In this document: positions 35,795-46,335 of the stretch, piece by piece
How the letters are laid out: every line of letters starts with the position of its first letter
Numbering within the stretch: position 1 is the stretch's first letter
Origin: Phycisphaera sp.
Lineage (GTDB): Bacteria; Planctomycetota; Phycisphaerae; Phycisphaerales; UBA1924
Direction: 5' to 3'
Length of the DNA stretch: 64,000 bases
Assembly: GCA_025916675.1 (NCBI GenBank)
Contig: CP098402.1
Coordinates: 55,205 to 119,204 of the forward strand
Position numbers and translations under genes: made by a program
Notes under the pieces: generated by a model
Database searches by the model: none
Told to the model about the DNA's origin: nothing
Seen by the model: the letters and a program-made list of their open reading frames with translations, nothing else

Positions 35795-36538
35795 CTAACA
35801 GCCCGCCGCGAACAGCGCCTGGAAGGCCAGGAAGTCGGCGAAGGTCAACGCCAAGTCGCCGTCGAAGTCCGCCAGCAGGTCGCCGGTGTTGAACGCGTTC
35901 TGAAAGGCCAGGAAGTCGAAAGTTGTCGCCAGACCGTCACCGTCGAGGTCGACGGCGCAACCGTCGGCCTGCCCCCGGGCCCGCACCATCCAGGTGCCGT
36001 TGAAGGGACTATCGCTCATGCGCAGGATGAACGGGGCCGCGCCGGGGTCCGGCAGAAGATCGCCGTCGTAGAACAGCCAGCTCCGCACGCCCAGCGTGTC
36101 CTGGTCCATGCGCGCGGCCGACTGGCGCTGCGGGATGAACGCGGCCACGGCCACGAAGAACCCGCCATCGGGCCCAACGTTCGTGGGGCGGATCGGGTAC
36201 GTCGCGAAGGTGCTCGTCGACGTGGACTGCGACGCGTGCGAGGCGGCCGAGATCGGTACCGCGTTGGTCGGGTCGCCGTCGCCATCGGGGTCGTTGTACA
36301 CGATGATCGTCAGCGGCGTGCCCACGGGCAGGCTGCCCGAGAACGACACGCTCACTTCGCTAATCCACGGGCATGAGGGCTCAACGTCGAAGTAATTGCC
36401 CCACGTCATCACCGCGTCGAACTCGCTGGGCCCGATGGTGAACCCGCCCGACCCGTCGTCGAGGATGAAATCGGGGCACTGGGCGAACGCGGAAACGGCG
36501 GAGAACAGCACGGCGGTGAGGGAGGTTGGTGTCTTCAT
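35795..36538 (-). CDS. Secreted hypothetical protein with duplicated EF-hand/dockerin-like C-terminal module
   Basis: Start ATG 36538 (signal MKTPTSLTAVLFSAVSAFAQ). Beta-rich body. C-terminus CAVDLDGDGLATTFDFLAFQNAFNTGDLLADFDGDLALTFADFLAFQALFAAGC. Confidence 0.6.
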   Translation of the reverse strand: MKTPTSLTAVLFSAVSAFAQCPDFILDDGSGGFTIGPSEFDAVMTWGNYFDVEPSCPWISEVSVSFSGSLPVGTPLTIIVYNDPDGDGDPTNAVPISAASHASQSTSTSTFATYPIRPTNVGPDGGFFVAVAAFIPQRQSAARMDQDTLGVRSWLFYDGDLLPDPGAAPFILRMSDSPFNGTWMVRARGQADGCAVDLDGDGLATTFDFLAFQNAFNTGDLLADFDGDLALTFADFLAFQALFAAGC

Positions 36539-36665
36539 GAGGCCAGCGTACGCGCTGGTCGGTTCTATACTTTCCCCCCGGCCCTGCCGCATCCGGCCGA
36601 TACCCAAACACTGCCGCCCCAGGTCCGATCGCCTTGGGCGTGCCTTTCCCTCGGAGAAAGCCCGC

Positions 36666-37865
36666 ATGAGCAACACACCCGTGATCGTCGCCGCCAAGCG
36701 CACCCCCATCGGCAAGTTCTTTGGCAGCCTCGCCGGCACGCCCGCGCCCCAGCTCGGTGCCTACGCCATCAAGGCCGCGATGGATGCCGTCCCCGCCCTC
36801 AAGGGCGACATGGTCGACGAGTGCGTCATGGGCTGCGTGCTGCAGGCCGGGCTGGGCCAGAACCCCGCCCGCCAGGCCGGGCTCGAGGCCGGCCTGCCCG
36901 ACACCCTGAGCGCCAAGACCATCAACAAGGTCTGCGGCTCGGGCCTCGAGGCCGTCATGATGGCCGCCCAGTCGATCAAGGCCGGCGACAACGACGTGGT
37001 CGTCGCCGGCGGCATGGAGAACATGACCGGCGCGCCCCACTTCGCCCACGTGCGGCAGGGCGTGAAGTTCGGCGACACCAAGCTCGTCGACGTCATGGCC
37101 CACGACGGCCTGACCTGCGCCTTCGAGTGCTGGATGATGGGCAACGCCGCCGACCACATCGCCCAGAAGTACGACATCAGCCGCGAGGAGCAGGATCGCT
37201 TCGCCGCCCAGAGCCACCAGCGGGCCGAGAAGGCGACCAGCGAGGGCTGGTTCAAGGACGAGATGGTCGCGCTCACCGGCGAGCAACTGGGCAACCGCAA
37301 GGTGCCCGGCCCCGAGGGTGGTTGCTCGACGGATGAGGGCATCCGCCCGGGCAGTACGGCCGAGGGCCTCTCGAAGCTGCGCCCCGCCTTCGACAAGGCC
37401 GGCACCGTGACCGCCGGCAACGCGAGCCAGATCAACGACGGCGCGGCGGCCACCATCGTGATGAGCGAGGCCAAGGCCAGCGAGCTTGGCATCAAGCCCA
37501 TGGCCAAGATCATCGCCTACGCCACAAGCGGCGTGGCGCCCAAGGACATCTTCGCCGCCCCGATCACCGGCGTGCAGAACGTGCTGAAGAAGGCCGGCCT
37601 GACCATCGACGACATCGACCTGTTCGAGCTCAACGAGGCCTTCGCCGCCCAGGTGCTCAGCAACATCAAGGAGCTGGGCATCCCCGAGGACAAGCTTAAC
37701 GTCGCCGGCGGCGGCGTCGCCCTGGGCCACCCCATCGGCGCCAGTGGCACCCGCGTGCTGACAACCCTCCTCCACCAGATGAATCGCACCGGCGCCAAGC
37801 GCGGGCTGGCGGGGCTGTGCCTGGGCGGTGGGAACAGCGTGGCGATGGTGGTAGAGGCGGTGTGA
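36666..37865 (+). CDS. Acetyl-CoA C-acetyltransferase (thiolase II)
   Basis: Start ATG 36666 (MSNTPVIVAAKRTPIGKFFGSL). Active-site Cys context INKVCGSGLEAV. C-terminal motifs NVAGGGVALGHPIGASGTR and GLAGLCLGGGNSVAMVVE. Confidence 0.92.
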   Translation: MSNTPVIVAAKRTPIGKFFGSLAGTPAPQLGAYAIKAAMDAVPALKGDMVDECVMGCVLQAGLGQNPARQAGLEAGLPDTLSAKTINKVCGSGLEAVMMAAQSIKAGDNDVVVAGGMENMTGAPHFAHVRQGVKFGDTKLVDVMAHDGLTCAFECWMMGNAADHIAQKYDISREEQDRFAAQSHQRAEKATSEGWFKDEMVALTGEQLGNRKVPGPEGGCSTDEGIRPGSTAEGLSKLRPAFDKAGTVTAGNASQINDGAAATIVMSEAKASELGIKPMAKIIAYATSGVAPKDIFAAPITGVQNVLKKAGLTIDDIDLFELNEAFAAQVLSNIKELGIPEDKLNVAGGGVALGHPIGASGTRVLTTLLHQMNRTGAKRGLAGLCLGGGNSVAMVVEAV

Positions 37866-37866
37866 G

Positions 37867-38598
37867 CTAGCCTGCTTTGCTCGCTTTTGCCTTCCACTCG
37901 TTATAGAGCTCTGTCTGAGCTTGCCGGCGAATTCTTGCAAGAGTCAATTTCATTTCCCGATTGTACCAAGATTTTAATTTGAGTGCATCCGGGATCAGCC
38001 TGTTGTCGAGCAAGAATCTCGGCAATCCACGCTCGCCCATCGCGACACGCGCTGCAGGAATTCGCCACACTTCACCGGTTCGGCTTATAACTTCAACTCC
38101 CCAGTAAGTACCGGGAATCTCAAGTAGTTTGAATGTGAAGAGTGGAAGTGTTGCTACGTAGGAGTCTTGTGCGGGCACTTCGATTGCCTTGTCCGATGAA
38201 ATTGCGGCAAGCGGCGGTGCCCGACCAATTTGTTTGAGAAACGCTTGGTTTTCCTTGCGAGACTTTTCTGCGTTGACCGCATGTCGAAATGGGTCATCGG
38301 CGGTTGCTGCCCCTGTCAACGCAACTCCATCCAGCAGGAGCGTGCTCTTACCGGTATTGGCAACCCTCACCCACATCCGATACGGCACACGCTGAAGGAA
38401 AGGGTCGCTATCCACACAGTCGCCGGTGGTGACGAAGAACTGTGGCTTGGCATCATGCTCGCTCTTATTCCAGTAGATAGTCCAGATGAGCGCGACGGTA
38501 GCAATGACAGAACCAGCAACTGTTGCCAGTGTTGCAACCGACATTGATAATGCATTCGAGGTGAGACTCAGAATCTCAACTATGGAGGTTGTGGGCAT
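37867..38598 (-). CDS. Orphan membrane-anchored hypothetical protein in a low-GC insert
   Basis: ORF 37867..38658(-), start placed at ATG 38598 (MPTTSIVEIL…); ATG 38658 would overlap the upstream gene. One N-terminal TM (VATLATVAGSVIATVALIWTIYW), then a beta-rich body. GC clearly lower than the surroundings. No recognisable motif. Confidence 0.5.
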   Translation of the reverse strand: MPTTSIVEILSLTSNALSMSVATLATVAGSVIATVALIWTIYWNKSEHDAKPQFFVTTGDCVDSDPFLQRVPYRMWVRVANTGKSTLLLDGVALTGAATADDPFRHAVNAEKSRKENQAFLKQIGRAPPLAAISSDKAIEVPAQDSYVATLPLFTFKLLEIPGTYWGVEVISRTGEVWRIPAARVAMGERGLPRFLLDNRLIPDALKLKSWYNREMKLTLARIRRQAQTELYNEWKAKASKAG

Positions 38599-38621
38599 TA
38601 AGTTTATTGTAGGCCCCGGCT

Positions 38622-40943
38622 CTAGGGGCACCCCGCCCCAAACGCATTCTGAAAACACAGAAAATCAAAGATGTCCAGCGCCCCCGACCCATCGCAATCC
38701 GCGATGAGGTCGCCCGCGTCGAAGGCGTTCTGGAACACCAGGAAGTCGAAGATCGTCAGCTCGCCGTCGCCGTCCAGGTCGGCGTAGCAGGAGGTGCCCA
38801 CCTCCAGCACCGGCGGGGGCATCAGCGTCACCGGCCGCTCGCCCGTGTCTTCGATCACGATCGTGACCTCGGCCGTCCCCGCGTCGCTGCCGGCGGTGGC
38901 CATCAGGTCGACCTCCCACACGCCGCCGCCCAATGACACGGGTGTGCCCAGGCTGATCGTGGGCGGCCCGCCGATGATGACCCGCGGCACGGCGGTGCTC
39001 ATGTCCGCGACCGCGCCCTGCCAATCGCGCAGCTCGATCCGCAGCGTCGTGCTCTCGCCCGGCGCGATCGTGTCGTCGTCGAGGGTTGCCGAACTCATCA
39101 CGCCGTCGGTCAGGCCAACCAGGTCGCTTCGCCAGTCGTCGAAATCATCTCGGAGCTGGAACACCGGATCGGGGTCGCTGCGGCTCTGGAACGCGACGTT
39201 GAAGTTCATGAAGTAGTCGCCCGCGCCGCAGCCCGGGCCGGAGGCGAACGTGCCGGATTGATTGCCGATGACCGAGACGTTGCTCCCGGTCGTGCCGACC
39301 AGCTCGTCGAAGCCGTCGCCCGTGAGGTCGACCAGCTCGAAGTTGCGCGGCAGCAGGCCCGAGCCGGTGGTGTCGACCAGCGTGAGTGCGCCGCCGTCGA
39401 TGCGGAAGGTCATCAGGTCGGCCGCGGTATCGCTGACGCCCACCACGAACTGCGCCGTGCCAGCCTCGGTCACGCTGCCGATGGCCGCCGAGTGGGGCGT
39501 TCGCGGCAGCGTGGCGGTGACCTCGGTGAACACGCCGCCCCCAAGGCTCACGACCACCGCCTCGCGCGACGAGCGGTTGATGCCCACCAGCTCGTCGGAT
39601 CCATCGCCGTCGAGGTCGCCCGCCTTGAGCGTCGAGGCGTCGATGCTGCTGCTGCCGATGGGCCCGAGCGCGAGCCCGCCCGATCCGTCGTTGAGCACCG
39701 CCACGACGAGCCCCGAGCCCGTCACGTAGCCCACGTCGTCCAGCCCGTCGCCATCCAGGTCGCCCACGGCCCATTGCCGAGGATCGCCGGCGAACATCAG
39801 CGACTCGGCCGTGAAGCCGCCGGCTCCATCGTTGCGCAGCACGGCCGCCTGCCCGCCGCTCGAAGCGCCCACGAACAGATCGCTCGGCCCGCCGTCGCCG
39901 TCTAGATCGATCGCCAGCAGCGCGCCCTCATCCGCGGCGATGCTCGTGCGCACCGGCTCGCCAAAAGCGCCCGCGCCGATACCCACGCCCACCGCGATCG
40001 CGCCGGCGTTGGTGTCGTGGGCGATCAGGTCGTCCACGCCATCGCCCGTCACGTCGAGCAGCAATATCCGCTCGGCCCGGCCGAAGCGCGTGTCGAAGGT
40101 CGGATCCAGCAGCACGGGCATGTCGCCCAGCACGCCGCCCGCGTTGGCGCGCGTCGCGATGCGGTCGCCGAGCTGGTCGGCCACCAGCACGTCGGGCAGC
40201 CCGTCGCCGTGCGTGTCGCCGATCGCCACGTCGCGCACGGGCGGGTCGGCCTGGTAGATGCCGTTGCACGCGTCGGTGTCGCCCGTGCGCGCGATCATCA
40301 TGTACCCGATATCCGCGCTCTTGAGGAATCCCGCCGGCGGCGTACCACACGGGATCGGCAGCGGCGTACACGAGCACCGCGCATCGCCGCCCTTGGCCTG
40401 GGCCGCTTCCATCCCCGCCATCAGCTTCTCGGCCAGGTCGCCCGGCGTCGTGATGATCGCCGCCACCGCGTCGTCGACCACCGCCGGCCCGGTCAGCAGG
40501 TTGCCCTGCACGGCGTAGATCACGCCGTCGATCTCACCGGTCGTCCCACCCGCCCACGCGCCCGCACCCGTGCCGCTGAACGTCGCGGCCAGCCCCGTGG
40601 TGTCGACGATGCCATACTGCCGCGTCTGGTGGCCGGAGTCGAAGGTCGAGAGGTCGGCCAGGATCTCGGAGGGCGTGAGTCCCAGCGCCAGCCCATCGCG
40701 GATGCGCACGCGATTGCGCCCCGACGAGTCCACGAAGCTCTGGGCCGTCGCCGCCCCGACGCCCGTGATGATCACCGGCGTGTTGGCCCGCAGGTCGAAG
40801 CTGGTCAGGCACGTGGCGCTGCCCAGGGCGATCTCGCCCGTGCGGGTGTCCACCAGCAGGATGGACCAGGTGGCTTGGGCCGTCCCGGCGGCACTCAGGA
40901 GGGCGGCGGCAGAGACAGCGGCAAGGGTTCGATAACCACGCAT
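38622..40943 (-). CDS. Secreted DUF1028 (Ntn-hydrolase-fold)-FG-GAP/VCBS repeat protein with dockerin-like C-terminus
   Basis: 773 aa. Signal MRGYRTLAAVSAAALLSAAGTAQA followed by TWSILLVDTRTGEIALGSATC… (DUF1028-like start). Six or more FG-GAP-type Ca loops (GDTHGDGLPDVLVAD, DVTGDGVDDLIAH, DLDGDGGPSDLFVG, GDLDGDGLDDVGYV, GDLDGDGSDELVGI, DLTGDGFDELVGT). C-terminus CYADLDGDGELTIFDFLVFQNAFDAGDLIADCDGSGALDIFDFLCFQNAFGAGCP. Confidence 0.7.
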   Translation of the reverse strand: MRGYRTLAAVSAAALLSAAGTAQATWSILLVDTRTGEIALGSATCLTSFDLRANTPVIITGVGAATAQSFVDSSGRNRVRIRDGLALGLTPSEILADLSTFDSGHQTRQYGIVDTTGLAATFSGTGAGAWAGGTTGEIDGVIYAVQGNLLTGPAVVDDAVAAIITTPGDLAEKLMAGMEAAQAKGGDARCSCTPLPIPCGTPPAGFLKSADIGYMMIARTGDTDACNGIYQADPPVRDVAIGDTHGDGLPDVLVADQLGDRIATRANAGGVLGDMPVLLDPTFDTRFGRAERILLLDVTGDGVDDLIAHDTNAGAIAVGVGIGAGAFGEPVRTSIAADEGALLAIDLDGDGGPSDLFVGASSGGQAAVLRNDGAGGFTAESLMFAGDPRQWAVGDLDGDGLDDVGYVTGSGLVVAVLNDGSGGLALGPIGSSSIDASTLKAGDLDGDGSDELVGINRSSREAVVVSLGGGVFTEVTATLPRTPHSAAIGSVTEAGTAQFVVGVSDTAADLMTFRIDGGALTLVDTTGSGLLPRNFELVDLTGDGFDELVGTTGSNVSVIGNQSGTFASGPGCGAGDYFMNFNVAFQSRSDPDPVFQLRDDFDDWRSDLVGLTDGVMSSATLDDDTIAPGESTTLRIELRDWQGAVADMSTAVPRVIIGGPPTISLGTPVSLGGGVWEVDLMATAGSDAGTAEVTIVIEDTGERPVTLMPPPVLEVGTSCYADLDGDGELTIFDFLVFQNAFDAGDLIADCDGSGALDIFDFLCFQNAFGAGCP

Positions 40944-41732: not shown

Positions 41733-42323
41733 AACGAGCCCCTCGCGCAAGCGAGGGGAATAGACCCCCAAGCACCCCACGCGTCCAACACTCGAAGATG
41801 CCCCTCCTCGCCTACCTCCTCACCTGGACCACCTACGGCACCCGGGTCCACGGCGACGAACGAGGAAGCGTCGACGACGCCCACAACACGCCCGGCACCG
41901 ACGCCCTGCTCCCCGACCCATCACGCGAAGCGCGTGTCGCCGTGTCGATGGCGGAGGGCCCGTTCGTGCTGGATGGGCAGATGCGAGAACTGGTGACGAG
42001 GGCGATCGAGGACCACGCCAGGCTGCGCGGCTGGCGCATCGACGCGCTCAATGTCCGCTCGAACCACGTCCACGTCGTCATCGCCGCGCCGAGCCACGCG
42101 CCCGCGGTCGTCGTCGCGCAGCTCAAGTCGTGGGCGACGCGTCGGCTTCGCGAGAGCGGGGCGATCGGGACGCGCAAGCGTGTGTGGACGAAGATGGCCA
42201 GCACGCGATACATCAACACCGAGGCGTCCCGGCTCGCGGCGGTCGACTACGTACGCAATCATCAGTAGTGGGCACGGGTGGCCTTCGGGCGTCCATTCCC
42301 CTCGCTCGCGCGAGGGGCTCGTT
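41733..42323 (+). mobile_element. RAYT (REP-associated tyrosine transposase-like) unit flanked by inverted REP-like hairpins
   Basis: 28-nt AACGAGCCCCTCGCGCAAGCGAGGGGAA (41733-41760) and its near-exact reverse complement TTCCCCTCGCTCGCGCGAGGGGCTCGTT (42296-42323) bracket the Y1-transposase-like ORF. Each copy contains an 8-bp GC hairpin CCCCTCGC/GCGAGGGG. Confidence 0.65.
41798..42268 (+). CDS. IS200/RAYT-like HUH Y1 transposase family protein
   Basis: 156 aa. N-terminus AYLLTWTTYGTRVHGDERGS, HUH motif RSNHVHVVI, C-terminal Tyr motif AAVDYVRNHQ. Size typical of RAYT. Confidence 0.7.
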   Translation: MPLLAYLLTWTTYGTRVHGDERGSVDDAHNTPGTDALLPDPSREARVAVSMAEGPFVLDGQMRELVTRAIEDHARLRGWRIDALNVRSNHVHVVIAAPSHAPAVVVAQLKSWATRRLRESGAIGTRKRVWTKMASTRYINTEASRLAAVDYVRNHQ

Positions 42324-42587: not shown

Positions 42588-42797
42588 TTCCTCTCGAAGA
42601 AAATGGCTCCCGTCTAGACCGGAGAGGCATTCCTCTCGAGGAAGATGGCTCCCGTCCAGACCGGAGGGGCATTCCTCTCGGGGAAGATGGCTCCCGTCCA
42701 GACCGGAGGGGCTTTCCTCTCGAGAACCATGGCTCCGGTCGAGTCCAGAGCGGCGTTCCTCCTCAAGAAGATGGCTCCGGCGCTGACCGGGAGGGCC
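42588..42797. repeat. Five tandem copies of a 42-bp unit, decaying 5'->3'
   Basis: Units start at 42588, 42630, 42672, 42714 and 42756 (TTCCTCTCGAGGAAGATGGCTCCCGTCCAGACCGGAGGGGCA consensus). Copies 1-3 are near-identical; copies 4-5 are degenerate. Each unit has internal dyad symmetry (CTCCCGTC..GACCGGAG). Codons in every frame are atypical for this genome (CTA, AGA, ATT, AAT). Confidence 0.8.
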
Positions 42798-42849: not shown

Positions 42850-43095
42850 ATGCCACTGTTCAACTCGATGTCCACCCCCGAGATCGCCGTCGCCCTGTTC
42901 GTGGGCCTGCTGGGCATGGCCCTGTTCATCTATGGCAAGAAGGCCGAGCGCCCGGCCATCCTCGTCGCCGGCCTGGCGATGTGCGTGCTGCCCATGCTCG
43001 CGCACGGCGTGCTGGCCCAACTGGGCCTGGCCGCGGTGTGCGTGGTGGGGGGTGTGGGGCTGGGGAGGGTGTTTGAGGGGGGTGGGGTGGTGTGA
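42850..43095 (+). CDS. Small two-TM membrane protein
   Basis: 81 aa, very strong GC3 bias. MSTPEIAVALFVGLLGMALFIYGKKAERPAILVAGLAMCVLPMLAHG resembles small proteins often annotated as amino acid transport protein. Start may be ATG 42868. Confidence 0.55.
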   Translation: MPLFNSMSTPEIAVALFVGLLGMALFIYGKKAERPAILVAGLAMCVLPMLAHGVLAQLGLAAVCVVGGVGLGRVFEGGGVV

Positions 43096-43145
43096 GCGAC
43101 TAGGAACTATACCTACATTGGCTGATTCAGGCTATAGTCCGATTC

Positions 43146-44666
43146 ATGGCTAGAAAGTACTCGCCCGACGATCGGAAGCTGGTTCGTCAGATTATTGACG
43201 ACACCGAAATGCCCACAGATTCCTGGCCGTACACAGATCAATTTGATCGTTGTCGTGCAGTCTTTAATACCGGCCGATTGAGTTCGTGGAATCGATCTGA
43301 GTTCTGGCACGTCGTCCTAGCTGTTCGAAAAGCTGGCGGAGATGGTGCCGCTAGGCGCAGACATGCTAGTGGCCTCGCAGCCGACGTAGTAATAGACAGA
43401 GAGGCGCTCCGGTCCGTTATGCCGCGAAGCCGAGGCGCGGTTGACAGACTGCCGTATAGCTCGACATTCGACTCAGCGTTTCGCAATTACAATCAGCGCA
43501 CGAAACGCAAATTGAATGAGAATCAGTTTTGGGTCGCCATGCTTCGTATCGCAAAGAGTCGAATCAAGAAGAATGCCAGGCCACATCTAGAAAAATCTAT
43601 TTGTGCATTGCGGTTAACAATTGATACATTTAACGCTAGTAGTGCCCATTTGAGAATGGACACTGTGTTGGTTCAGTTGCATTGGGCGTTTGAACAATTG
43701 CTCAAGGCGTCCCTCATCCAATACGGCGAGCCTATTAAGGAATCGAGTCGGGAGCAGACAATCTCGTTCGATCGTGCAAGCAAGATTGCCCATACAAAAG
43801 ATTCTGCCAAGTTTATCTCATATCAAGATTGGAAATATTTGCAATGGTTGAAGAATGTACGTGGCGGCGCATACCACGACCTTGTTGTTTTGGATGAAGC
43901 AGAGCTATACCTTCTTGCAAAAACGGGGGTCGAGCTTTTCGACAAGGTTCTAGATGATGTTTTCTTTGAGCGGCTGGCTGATCGAATCGAATCGAGAGTG
44001 CTGCCTATTTGCACTGTGCCGCTTGTGGATATTGGTGTACTGTTGGATCGAAAACGCTCCCAGATATATGCCCTATCCAAGGCTGGCGAGGCTCAGGCGG
44101 CAAGAAATGCCGCACGATCGCTTGCAGACTTGGAGTTGGTTCTCGGTCAGGATCGGCCCGAAGACGAGTTGTTGCCAGGGGCCCGAAAGAAGCAAGTTGA
44201 TGCGATCGTGAGGGCGGTTGATCGGCAAGAGCCGCTCGAAGATCATTTGCCGATGTGCTCCGCGATCCAAATCACCATGGAGGGAACCGGCCCAACTCTG
44301 AGTGTGAGCCTCGTTGGAAAGAAGAATCCTGGGGTTTCAGGAATCGAGGTAGATGGCAGTGCACCTGCTGTGGCATATAGGCGCATCAATCCGGCAGATG
44401 ATTTTCAGTTGACCCATACGCAAGTTGCCCAAAAACTGAAGATATCAACATCGGTGCTTACTGGGATTATGCGTGAGTTGAATGTCCATGATGATGAATC
44501 GATGTGCTATCGACACGGCCCCGCTGGGTCTGGTATGAAACAAGTTGGTTTTCACCACAAGGTGCTCGACAAAGTGAGACGATTTCTAGCTGAACATCCC
44601 GACGAGGATCCATTGACATGGTATCGTATACATGTATCGACAAATAAAAAGCACCGGCAGAGGTAA
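43146..44666 (+). CDS. Orphan 506-aa protein in a low-GC island (duplicated N-terminal module, Rx4H helical core, HTH-like C-terminal segment)
   Basis: Only long ORF in a roughly 1.6-kb segment of about 45-50 % GC. Internal duplication WPYTDQFDRCRAVFNTGRLSSWNRSEFWHVVLAVRKAG / LPYSSTFDSAFRNYNQRTKRKLNENQFWVAMLRIAKSR. Core …LVQLHWAFEQLLKASLI…LKNVRGGAYHDLVV…. C-terminal LTHTQVAQKLKISTSVLTGIMRELNV. Confidence 0.6.
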   Translation: MARKYSPDDRKLVRQIIDDTEMPTDSWPYTDQFDRCRAVFNTGRLSSWNRSEFWHVVLAVRKAGGDGAARRRHASGLAADVVIDREALRSVMPRSRGAVDRLPYSSTFDSAFRNYNQRTKRKLNENQFWVAMLRIAKSRIKKNARPHLEKSICALRLTIDTFNASSAHLRMDTVLVQLHWAFEQLLKASLIQYGEPIKESSREQTISFDRASKIAHTKDSAKFISYQDWKYLQWLKNVRGGAYHDLVVLDEAELYLLAKTGVELFDKVLDDVFFERLADRIESRVLPICTVPLVDIGVLLDRKRSQIYALSKAGEAQAARNAARSLADLELVLGQDRPEDELLPGARKKQVDAIVRAVDRQEPLEDHLPMCSAIQITMEGTGPTLSVSLVGKKNPGVSGIEVDGSAPAVAYRRINPADDFQLTHTQVAQKLKISTSVLTGIMRELNVHDDESMCYRHGPAGSGMKQVGFHHKVLDKVRRFLAEHPDEDPLTWYRIHVSTNKKHRQR

Positions 44667-44675
44667 TGCCGGTGC
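44642..44675 (-). terminator. Rho-independent terminator of groEL
   Basis: Arms GCACCGGCA (44651-44659) / TGCCGGTGC (44667-44675). On the minus strand the hairpin is followed by TTTTTATTTG. The TAA stop of the + strand ORF 43146..44666 lies in the loop. Confidence 0.65.
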
Positions 44676-44703
44676 TCCTTAAGAGAGTGGTTAGCCGCTT
44701 CAA

Positions 44704-46335
<1,632 letters not shown>

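Follow-up and report, generated by a model that had tools for sequence, protein, structure and literature searches.

A solo PDC-S19/DUF3644 HEPN protein with a duplicated N-terminal domain, convergent with groEL in a Phycisphaera genome: a candidate immunity effector

The DNA analyzed here, hereafter the window, is a stretch of 64,000 nucleotides from Phycisphaera sp. (contig CP098402.1 of assembly GCA_025916675.1, positions 55,205 to 119,204 of the forward strand; coordinates below count from its first letter). Between a native small open reading frame (ORF) and groEL it holds a segment of about 50 % guanine-plus-cytosine (GC) content at 43096..44700 (no strand assigned), and in this island an ORF on the plus strand (43146..44666) encodes a protein of 506 amino acids (aa), which belongs to the PDC-S19/DUF3644 (HEPN) family with an added N-terminal domain. 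A preliminary description of the locus, made from the letters alone, had put the segment at roughly 45-50 % GC against 65-70 % in the flanks. Congruent with that estimate, sliding windows of 300 nt give GC fractions of 0.43-0.56 across 43100-44750 and 0.65-0.74 on both sides, and at a scale of 1 kb the island reaches 0.485-0.51, some 5 standard deviations (sd) lower than the window mean of 0.667 (sd 0.035). The loss of the otherwise prevailing bias for G or C in third codon positions could likewise be reproduced: the ORF has a GC content of 0.50 both overall and in third positions (GC3), as compared to a GC3 of 0.76-0.96 in 47 of the 49 ORFs of the window, the exceptions near 0.5 being this ORF and one at 37867..38658. 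The six neighboring genes fall at 0.885-0.957, with groEL at 0.95, the small ORF at 0.915, a RAYT gene at 0.885 and ftsH at 0.91. Direct repeats flanking the island did not exceed chance and no att-like pair was detected, so simple site-specific integration could not be demonstrated. A sigma-70 scan upstream of the ORF found no promoter, and an Rfam scan of the window gave no matches.

Membership of the 506-aa protein in the PDC-S19/DUF3644 family is, in our judgment, practically certain. The PADLOC model PDLC04951 for PDC-S19 aligns over nearly its whole length (profile positions 2-344 of 357) with residues 141-488 (E=2.9e-61), a second PDC-S19 model, PDLC04947, follows at E=1.9e-57, and PDC-S19 is the only PADLOC assignment among the matching models. 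The resemblance to DUF3644 noted in the preliminary description is borne out by Pfam, where PF12358 scores 30.7 bits against a gathering cutoff of 27.6 (E=2.9e-7, residues 147-288, profile positions 2-148 of 183); the relatives P0006 and P0010 reach 43-47 bits with the same model. Anantharaman et al. (2013, PMC3710099) placed DUF3644 in the HEPN superfamily, and PDC-S19 is one of 145 candidates nominated for their embedding in BREX, DISARM or type I restriction-modification (RM) loci (10.1101/2024.01.29.577857), with no mention of PDC-S19 by name found in the literature searched. The HEPN/DUF3644/PDC-S19 identity as such is established knowledge and on record in existing catalogues. The protein had moreover been taken for an orphan, a status that had to be abandoned: an exhaustive phmmer search of 1.84 billion representatives recovered 293 cluster representatives at E<=1e-3, of which 159 at E<=1e-10. 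Word-indexed protein searches yielded 2 matches with the full protein, 2 with an alignment of 71 family sequences and 9 with an alignment of the N-terminal domain. The protein has no useful match in NCBIfam or PHROGs and none among PDB sequences, which also yielded nothing to profiles of the family and of the N-terminal domain.

To assess the fold we generated an AlphaFold2 model from the 71-sequence alignment (pLDDT 89.1, pTM 0.78), in which residues 141-280 reach a pLDDT of 93-98. The HEPN (DUF3644) domain, delimited by Pfam, the helices of the model and Foldseek, spans residues 145-288 (43578..44009, +), with predicted helices at 145-163, 170-192, 208-217, 226-244 and 251-273. The fourth of these ends with R239-G-G-A-Y-H244 (43860..43877, +; position checked by script), the Rx4H catalytic signature of HEPN RNases, and the earlier suggestion that RGGAYH fits an Rx4-6H motif stands, as R239 and H244 are invariant across the 71 family members. 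In this alignment (A1) the columns of N163, R170, E183 and K187 are equally invariant, and every residue invariant in the family is retained in the 506-aa protein. The helical core proposed from the sequence is predicted to form an all-alpha up-and-down bundle, the best consistent PDB matches of which are HEPN proteins: 2hsb (Foldseek probability 1.00, target TM score 0.81, root-mean-square deviation 2.7 A over 134 columns), the HepT toxins 5yep_B (0.93), 7bxo_G and 6m6u, and 1o3u and 1wwp. Owing to the use of the entire 506-residue model as query, these HEPN matches have E-values of 0.4-2, and we used only consistent HEPN and helix-turn-helix (HTH) matches; at E<=0.001 Foldseek found nothing for the whole model in PDB or among viral structures, nor for the N-terminal model in PDB.

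Following the HEPN domain, a middle region of residues 296-410 (44031..44375, +) is modeled as three long helices and a small beta hairpin with a low-confidence loop at 380-410; it lies within the PDC-S19 profile and has no Pfam match. The C-terminal stretch previously described as HTH-like folds in the model as a winged HTH (wHTH), residues 416-483 (44391..44594, +), with helices 424-431 and 435-445, a beta hairpin 454-469 (strands 454-457 and 466-469) and a helix 472-483. Structural matches of MarR type and of MerR/excisionase/Cox type to this domain are weak, and Pfam HTH_ParB and RWP-RK match residues 408-449 below threshold, so that the support is weaker than for HEPN.

The part of the protein that sets it apart from most of its family is the N-terminus. 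The duplication of an N-terminal module that the preliminary description had pointed out is amply supported, as the two halves find each other by BLASTP at E=2e-7 and their profiles align in hhalign with a probability of 99.25 % (E=5e-20, 63 columns). Repeat 1, residues 7-69 (43164..43352, +), comprises three helices (7-19, 31-40 and 50-62 in the model) and the motif D-x-W-P-Y-T-x-x-F ... F-W ... K, while repeat 2, residues 81-143 (43386..43574, +; helices 85-91, 96-100, 106-119 and 125-136), carries D-R-L-P-Y-S-x-x-F ... F-W ... K, giving the general motif D-x-[LWI]-P-Y-[TS]-x-x-F ... W ... K twice in about 140 residues. An alignment of 17 sequences displays 14 invariant positions mirrored between the repeats, D25, P28, Y29, F33, W54 and K62 in the first and G97, D100, L102, P103, Y104, F108, W129 and K137 in the second, all of which are kept in the 506-aa protein. 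The domain is all-helical and strongly basic. Its net charge amounts to +14 in the window copy; among the 17 aligned sequences, 16 range from +6 to +19 and one has +1. The complete order is two basic three-helix repeats, HEPN with the invariant Rx4H, a helical/beta linker and the wHTH.

Judged by its occurrence in other sequences, the stretch of residues 1-140 is a separable domain. It is also found at the N-terminus of AAA_14 + DUF4143 proteins of 641-649 aa (P0098 and P0140; others are truncated), fusion ATPases that match PADLOC PDC-S01 (E=4e-36). The domain itself matched nothing in Pfam, NCBIfam, PADLOC or PDB sequences, and Foldseek gave no significant structural match; Myb, homeodomain and trihelix three-helix DNA-binding folds appear at Foldseek probabilities of 0.13-0.54, which we regard as a weak lead. 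Because it is common to the HEPN protein and to an unrelated effector, the PDC-S01 ATPase, the domain more plausibly acts as a sensor, adaptor or tether than in catalysis. Its presence on both a HEPN RNase and an AAA_14/DUF4143 ATPase represents a domain swap, and if the domain is a sensor, it would be a new entry among the few portable trigger modules of bacterial immunity. In the libraries and literature covered we found no earlier description of the tandem N-terminal domain or of its occurrence in PDC-S01 ATPases, nor of the solo architecture or the conserved packing against the groEL terminator at a variable, defense-rich site (see below).

The bulk of the family measures about 355-375 aa (typically some 361 aa) and is devoid of the N-terminal domain. 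Both repeats and the HEPN core are present in the relatives P0003-P0006 (495-505 aa, 26-49 % identity), which have an equivalent start. The closest homologue, P0002 (61 % identity), retains repeat 2 and apparently lacks repeat 1, its apparent start being placed just ahead of repeat 2 because of an in-frame stop upstream. Truncated or split relatives are common among the matches, e.g., P0019, P0102 and P0153. These comparisons also bear on the public annotation of the gene, NCW75_00410 in the metagenome-assembled genome (MAG) of Phycisphaera sp., which is 384 aa long and starts at M123, thereby dropping 43146-43511 and with it the whole of repeat 1 as well as the linker and over half of repeat 2. 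Since the residues upstream of M123 are conserved at the protein level in many relatives, this gene model is very likely too short.

We then turned to the genomic surroundings of the family. When one genome per species was scanned, the core form, in every case without the N-terminal domain, turned up at 30 loci in many phyla, including Chloroflexota, Bacteroidota, Desulfobacterota, Acidobacteriota (e.g., the complete genome of Telmatobacter bradus), Planctomycetota, Nitrospirota, Bacillota, Pseudomonadota and two archaea. BREX parts (BrxC, PglXI, BrxHI, PglZ or BrxA) reside beside the gene in 20 of the 30 as detected by tblastn, and in a pair of loci annotated with PADLOC the succession is BrxC, PglXI, (BrxHI), PglZ and BrxA, with the core gene between PglXI and BrxHI/PglZ. 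One further locus adjoins a type I RM S subunit and another a DUF1156 methyltransferase. Several core-form genes are far lower in GC than their flanks, e.g., 0.43 versus 0.63, and the core form is carried by 12 of 72,556 plasmids, in some of them next to a type II RM system, as on conjugative Xanthomonas plasmids, where it follows an RM pair of dcm and Eco29kI. The core family thus moves horizontally. An origin from a prophage or phage was dropped, as neither the viral contigs nor 50,697 phage genomes contained a relative. In the BREX type 3-like host loci of core PDC-S19 we additionally observed a conserved 612-aa protein with SLFN_AlbA_2, HATPase_c_4 and Fic-like_C domains between BrxC and PglXI (L008 5230-7065, with equivalents in L010, L013, L015, L016, L017, L021 and L026).

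The relatives that possess the N-terminal domain are found in other settings. In an island that also contains an integrase and a serine recombinase, P0005 has a type III-like methyltransferase on one side and a UvrD/GajB-like helicase on the other. P0004 (gene GC 0.486, flank 0.633) adjoins an apparent ribonucleotide reductase fragment, as read from the sequence. Ahead of P0006 and of a Gemmata copy lies a Ymh HEPN gene with a match to PD-Lambda-3_B (E=6e-72), and Ymh and the P0006-clade gene may form a two-HEPN gene pair; this Ymh lies at L034 262-1062 and L123 6786-7378, and in the Gemmata MAG it is present as two pieces, with the gene downstream of it truncated. The window copy has no such company: a PADLOC scan of the 49 ORFs of the window detected no BREX or RM parts, returning only generic matches to housekeeping ATPases and a cysteine desulfurase, and the copy is therefore solo. 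It is embedded in no BREX, DISARM or type I RM locus, the setting for which PDC-S19 was nominated.

At its 3' end the gene is tightly packed against groEL (44704..46335, -), a native convergent neighbor by its GC3. The intrinsic terminator of groEL (44641..44681, -) consists of a GC-rich stem of 10 bp, a 7-nt loop and a U-run, and overlaps the last codons and the stop of the 506-aa ORF. As the preliminary description had it, the hairpin AGCACCGGCA-GAGGTAA-TGCCGGTGCT (44650-44676) has the TAA stop (44664-44666) in its loop; read on the minus strand, it begins 27 nt past the groEL stop and is followed by UUUUUAUUU. The RNA of this strand folds with -25.7 kcal/mol (z=-3.55), and the element coincides with inverted repeat I3. 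A consensus terminator scan overlooked this hairpin, since its stem can continue into the U-run.

The same arrangement recurs elsewhere. P0003, 49 % identical and of the same architecture, is directly convergent with groEL on a metagenome contig, where the encoded GroEL is 76 % identical to that of the window, a level that points to a distantly related host (L032 and L033 proved to be one sequence and were counted as a single independent lineage). The P0003 gene has a GC of 0.458 and a GC3 of 0.43 between flanks of 0.62-0.65, and its TAA is also located in a hairpin loop, AGGCGATCTC-GTTAA-GAGATCGCCT, with an A-tract before the hairpin and a stem that differs in sequence from that of the window. 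DNA similarity between the two loci stops at about the groEL stop codon, 3 nt beyond it. More generally, the four closest family members have a GC of 0.44-0.50, with host values of 0.62-0.69 for the three with measurable flanks, the P0002 contig offering only 63 nt. The horizontal acquisition proposed earlier consequently holds as far as the foreign composition is concerned, but not as a private, recent insertion, since a 49 %-identical homologue occupies the same position beside groEL.

With the lineage-specific C-terminus of GroEL, a scan of metagenomes recovered the 80 closest groEL loci, and a gene of the PDC-S19 family was absent from all of them. In the closest of them the space 3' of groEL is instead occupied by varied cargo: a TIR protein (GC3 0.51 versus 0.95 for groEL), a RAYT with a DUF4062 protein and elsewhere a RAYT alone, a pair of HTH_VI and reverse transcriptase (RT) genes matching the PADLOC retron type VI HTH and several RT models including RT_VI, a low-GC FG-GAP/DUF6973 protein, and elsewhere a glyoxalase (cargo coordinates L041 533-1447, L044 6346-8039, L049 1531-2862 and L042 6389-7462; the RAYT genes directly 3' of groEL are those of L044 and L045). 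Given this variety, the content of the groEL 3' flank is variable and frequently consists of defense-type, compositionally foreign genes, which suggests a defense hotspot in planctomycetes. The window and P0003 copies may represent either one old insertion or separate captures. The varied cargo at the site and the low GC of the four closest members speak for separate capture, whereas the identical orientation and the shared stop-in-loop layout speak for common descent; an old insertion would need the low GC to be maintained, perhaps limiting expression of a toxic enzyme. The Lys-rich A-tract tail of the protein is a family feature that is present also in members away from groEL, and the cargo itself may hence supply the U-run of the groEL terminator.

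For comparison, the PrrC and RloC anticodon nucleases are latent HEPN RNases in restriction-modification loci, released when the modification-defense system is attacked. They serve as our working analogy for the embedded core family (see also PMC3710099), but contain an ABC-ATPase domain and belong to another HEPN family, while the window copy has neither an ATPase nor a partner locus. Relative to typical PDC-S19 proteins, the window copy shares the near end-to-end profile match, the succession of HEPN, helical linker and wHTH, and the invariant N, R, E, K and Rx4H, and differs in its 506 rather than about 361 aa, its duplicated N-terminus of 140 aa and its solo position as opposed to one between PglXI and BrxHI/PglZ. 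HEC-08, a validated anti-phage protein with a DUF3644 HEPN domain and a zinc-finger-like C-terminus, requires the His of its Rx4-6H motif for defense (10.1101/2024.01.29.577857). The window protein likewise has a DUF3644-type HEPN with an Rx4-6H motif, but in HEC-08 the HEPN domain is N-terminal and zinc fingers are present, whereas the window protein lacks Cys clusters and ends in a wHTH, and the PADLOC models matching it are those of PDC-S19, not of HEC-08. The EC042_2821 HEPN family overlaps DUF3644, is fused to wHTH domains and occurs in RM operons, also with restriction endonuclease (REase) and Zn-ribbon domains (PMC3710099). The overlap with DUF3644 and the wHTH are found in the window protein as well; the REase-like PF18740 is not among its Pfam matches at E<=10 (P0010 reaches only E=0.018), and no Zn ribbon or CxxC pair is visible in its sequence. 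As to HepT/MNT, the HepT toxins are among the closest solved structures to the HEPN domain, yet the window protein is four times larger, with extra domains, and no MNT nucleotidyltransferase is situated beside the ORF, the neighbors of which are an 81-aa hydrophobic ORF and groEL. Ishtar proteins with DUF3644/DUF4145 HEPN domains, finally, expel the plasmid RP4 (10.64898/2026.07.06.735840); their HEPN is N-terminal, with no N-terminal repeat domain described.

Considering these observations, we find it reasonably probable that the 506-aa protein is a stand-alone conflict or immunity effector, a latent HEPN RNase employed in phage or plasmid defense. The earlier proposal of a defense candidate is strengthened by the PDC-S19 match and by the relatives in BREX and RM loci, and a candidate it stays. 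The HEPN domain would be a latent, metal-independent endoribonuclease, probably acting as a dimer by analogy with other HEPN enzymes, which an invading phage or plasmid would activate to cut cellular or invader RNA, with growth arrest or abortive infection as the putative outcome; alternatively the invader would be lost, an effect reported for Ishtar. Nucleic acid or an invader product is the predicted ligand of the wHTH and of the N-terminal repeats, and in the solo form these parts would supply the sensing or restraint that BREX or RM partners give in the embedded form. By analogy with PrrC in type I RM loci, the embedded form of the core is probably dependent on these partners or guards them, and in the solo form the N-terminal domain may replace this dependence. 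We further entertain, as a tentative and rather doubtful idea, that the tandem 'LPYT...FW' domain is an undescribed portable module for sensing or nucleic-acid binding, the acquisition of which may render a BREX/RM-dependent accessory HEPN autonomous as a single gene, and that the groEL 3' flank is a lineage-wide defense hotspot of Phycisphaerae-like planctomycetes where the cargo shares, and perhaps supplies, the terminator.

Several points weigh against an immunity effector. Members of PDC-S19 are listed in the source paper as mere candidates (10.1101/2024.01.29.577857), and the RNase activity, trigger and target of the 506-aa protein are all inferred. The Foldseek E-values of the whole model exceed 0.1, so the fold call relies on probability, TM scores and Pfam, and the role of the N-terminal domain is a guess with no significant structural match behind it. 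The window copy lies outside any defense island, with no other specific defense gene within 64 kb, and the same-position homologue next to a GroEL of 76 % identity could mean long vertical residence, which fits a domesticated function equally well. Such a function could be that of an RNA-processing or regulatory factor tied to groESL, where the convergent overlap would represent co-regulation, for instance by antisense read-through. The recurrence of the stop-in-terminator-loop layout with a different stem in the lineage of the P0003 host would agree with this, as would the involvement of HEPN domains in RNA processing and regulation (PMC3710099). However, the gene is missing from 80 of 80 of the closest metagenome groEL loci, where varied cargo takes its place, which disfavors coupling to groESL, and elsewhere the family is tied to BREX and RM loci and to plasmids. 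As the Lys-rich A-tract tail is a family feature away from groEL too, the overlap may be a by-product, and we hold a domesticated factor to be highly improbable.

Abortive infection is also not the only form that immunity could take. An anti-plasmid effector in the manner of Ishtar would cause incoming conjugative elements to be lost at little cost to the cell, and in its favor, Ishtar1 and Ishtar2 are single-gene systems with an N-terminal DUF4145 or DUF3644 HEPN and a C-terminal alpha/beta domain of unknown function, and ist2 lies between core genes at a spot of shuffled, unrelated genes, resembling the variable groEL flank. Against this, the PDC-S19 core family is itself carried on conjugative plasmids, and the PADLOC lists for strains with ist1 and ist2 include no PDC-S19, so that Ishtar is probably a different family with the HEPN domain alone in common, a comparison made by description; we consider this alternative unlikely. 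Slightly further down the scale, and in our view quite unlikely, the gene could be selfish or in decay, a toxin-like passenger that brings the host no benefit and is retained, through addiction or by chance, at a recombination-prone site. The low GC and GC3, the RAYT/REP elements and tandem repeats nearby and the frequency of truncated or split relatives would suit a passenger, but the ORF is intact over 506 codons with all family-invariant residues and the 14 N-terminal invariants in place, which disfavors decay; moreover, an intact homologue of 49 % identity persists at the same place in a distant relative and no antitoxin-like partner is adjacent. Should none of the functional readings hold, the gene would be an ordinary horizontally acquired HEPN gene.

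Little is known of planctomycete immunity. The findings do not overturn current understanding; the value of the locus is that it presents a naturally stand-alone, single-gene PDC-S19, with R239 and H244 as obvious residues for point mutants.

Upstream, the island is bordered at its left edge by the small native ORF (42850..43095, +; 81 aa, hydrophobic), for which Pfam holds no family. It is preceded by a non-coding 42-bp tandem repeat (42588-42778; 4.5 copies, 85 % matches) and, further out, by a RAYT-type gene (Y1_Tnp, 41798..42268) bracketed by the REP-like palindromes CCCCTCGCnnGCGnGAGGGG at 41739-41758 and 42298-42317 (4 strand matches against 0.2 expected). All elements that the preliminary description placed directly before the island are consequently present, but the native ORF intervenes between the tandem repeat and the island. 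Homologues of the 81-aa ORF, a TPR/YggX gene and the RAYT are absent from the 80 related groEL loci.

The second foreign-looking ORF of the window (37867..38658, -) encodes 263 aa with an N-terminal hydrophobic helix at a GC3 of 0.53, and has no match in Pfam or PADLOC. Two secreted-looking proteins were further observed at 35795-36739 (-) and 38622-40943 (-), both bearing a C-terminal duplicated DGDGxLxxFDFLxFQNxFxxGC that resembles a dockerin-like anchor, the larger one in addition containing DUF1028 and FG-GAP repeats.

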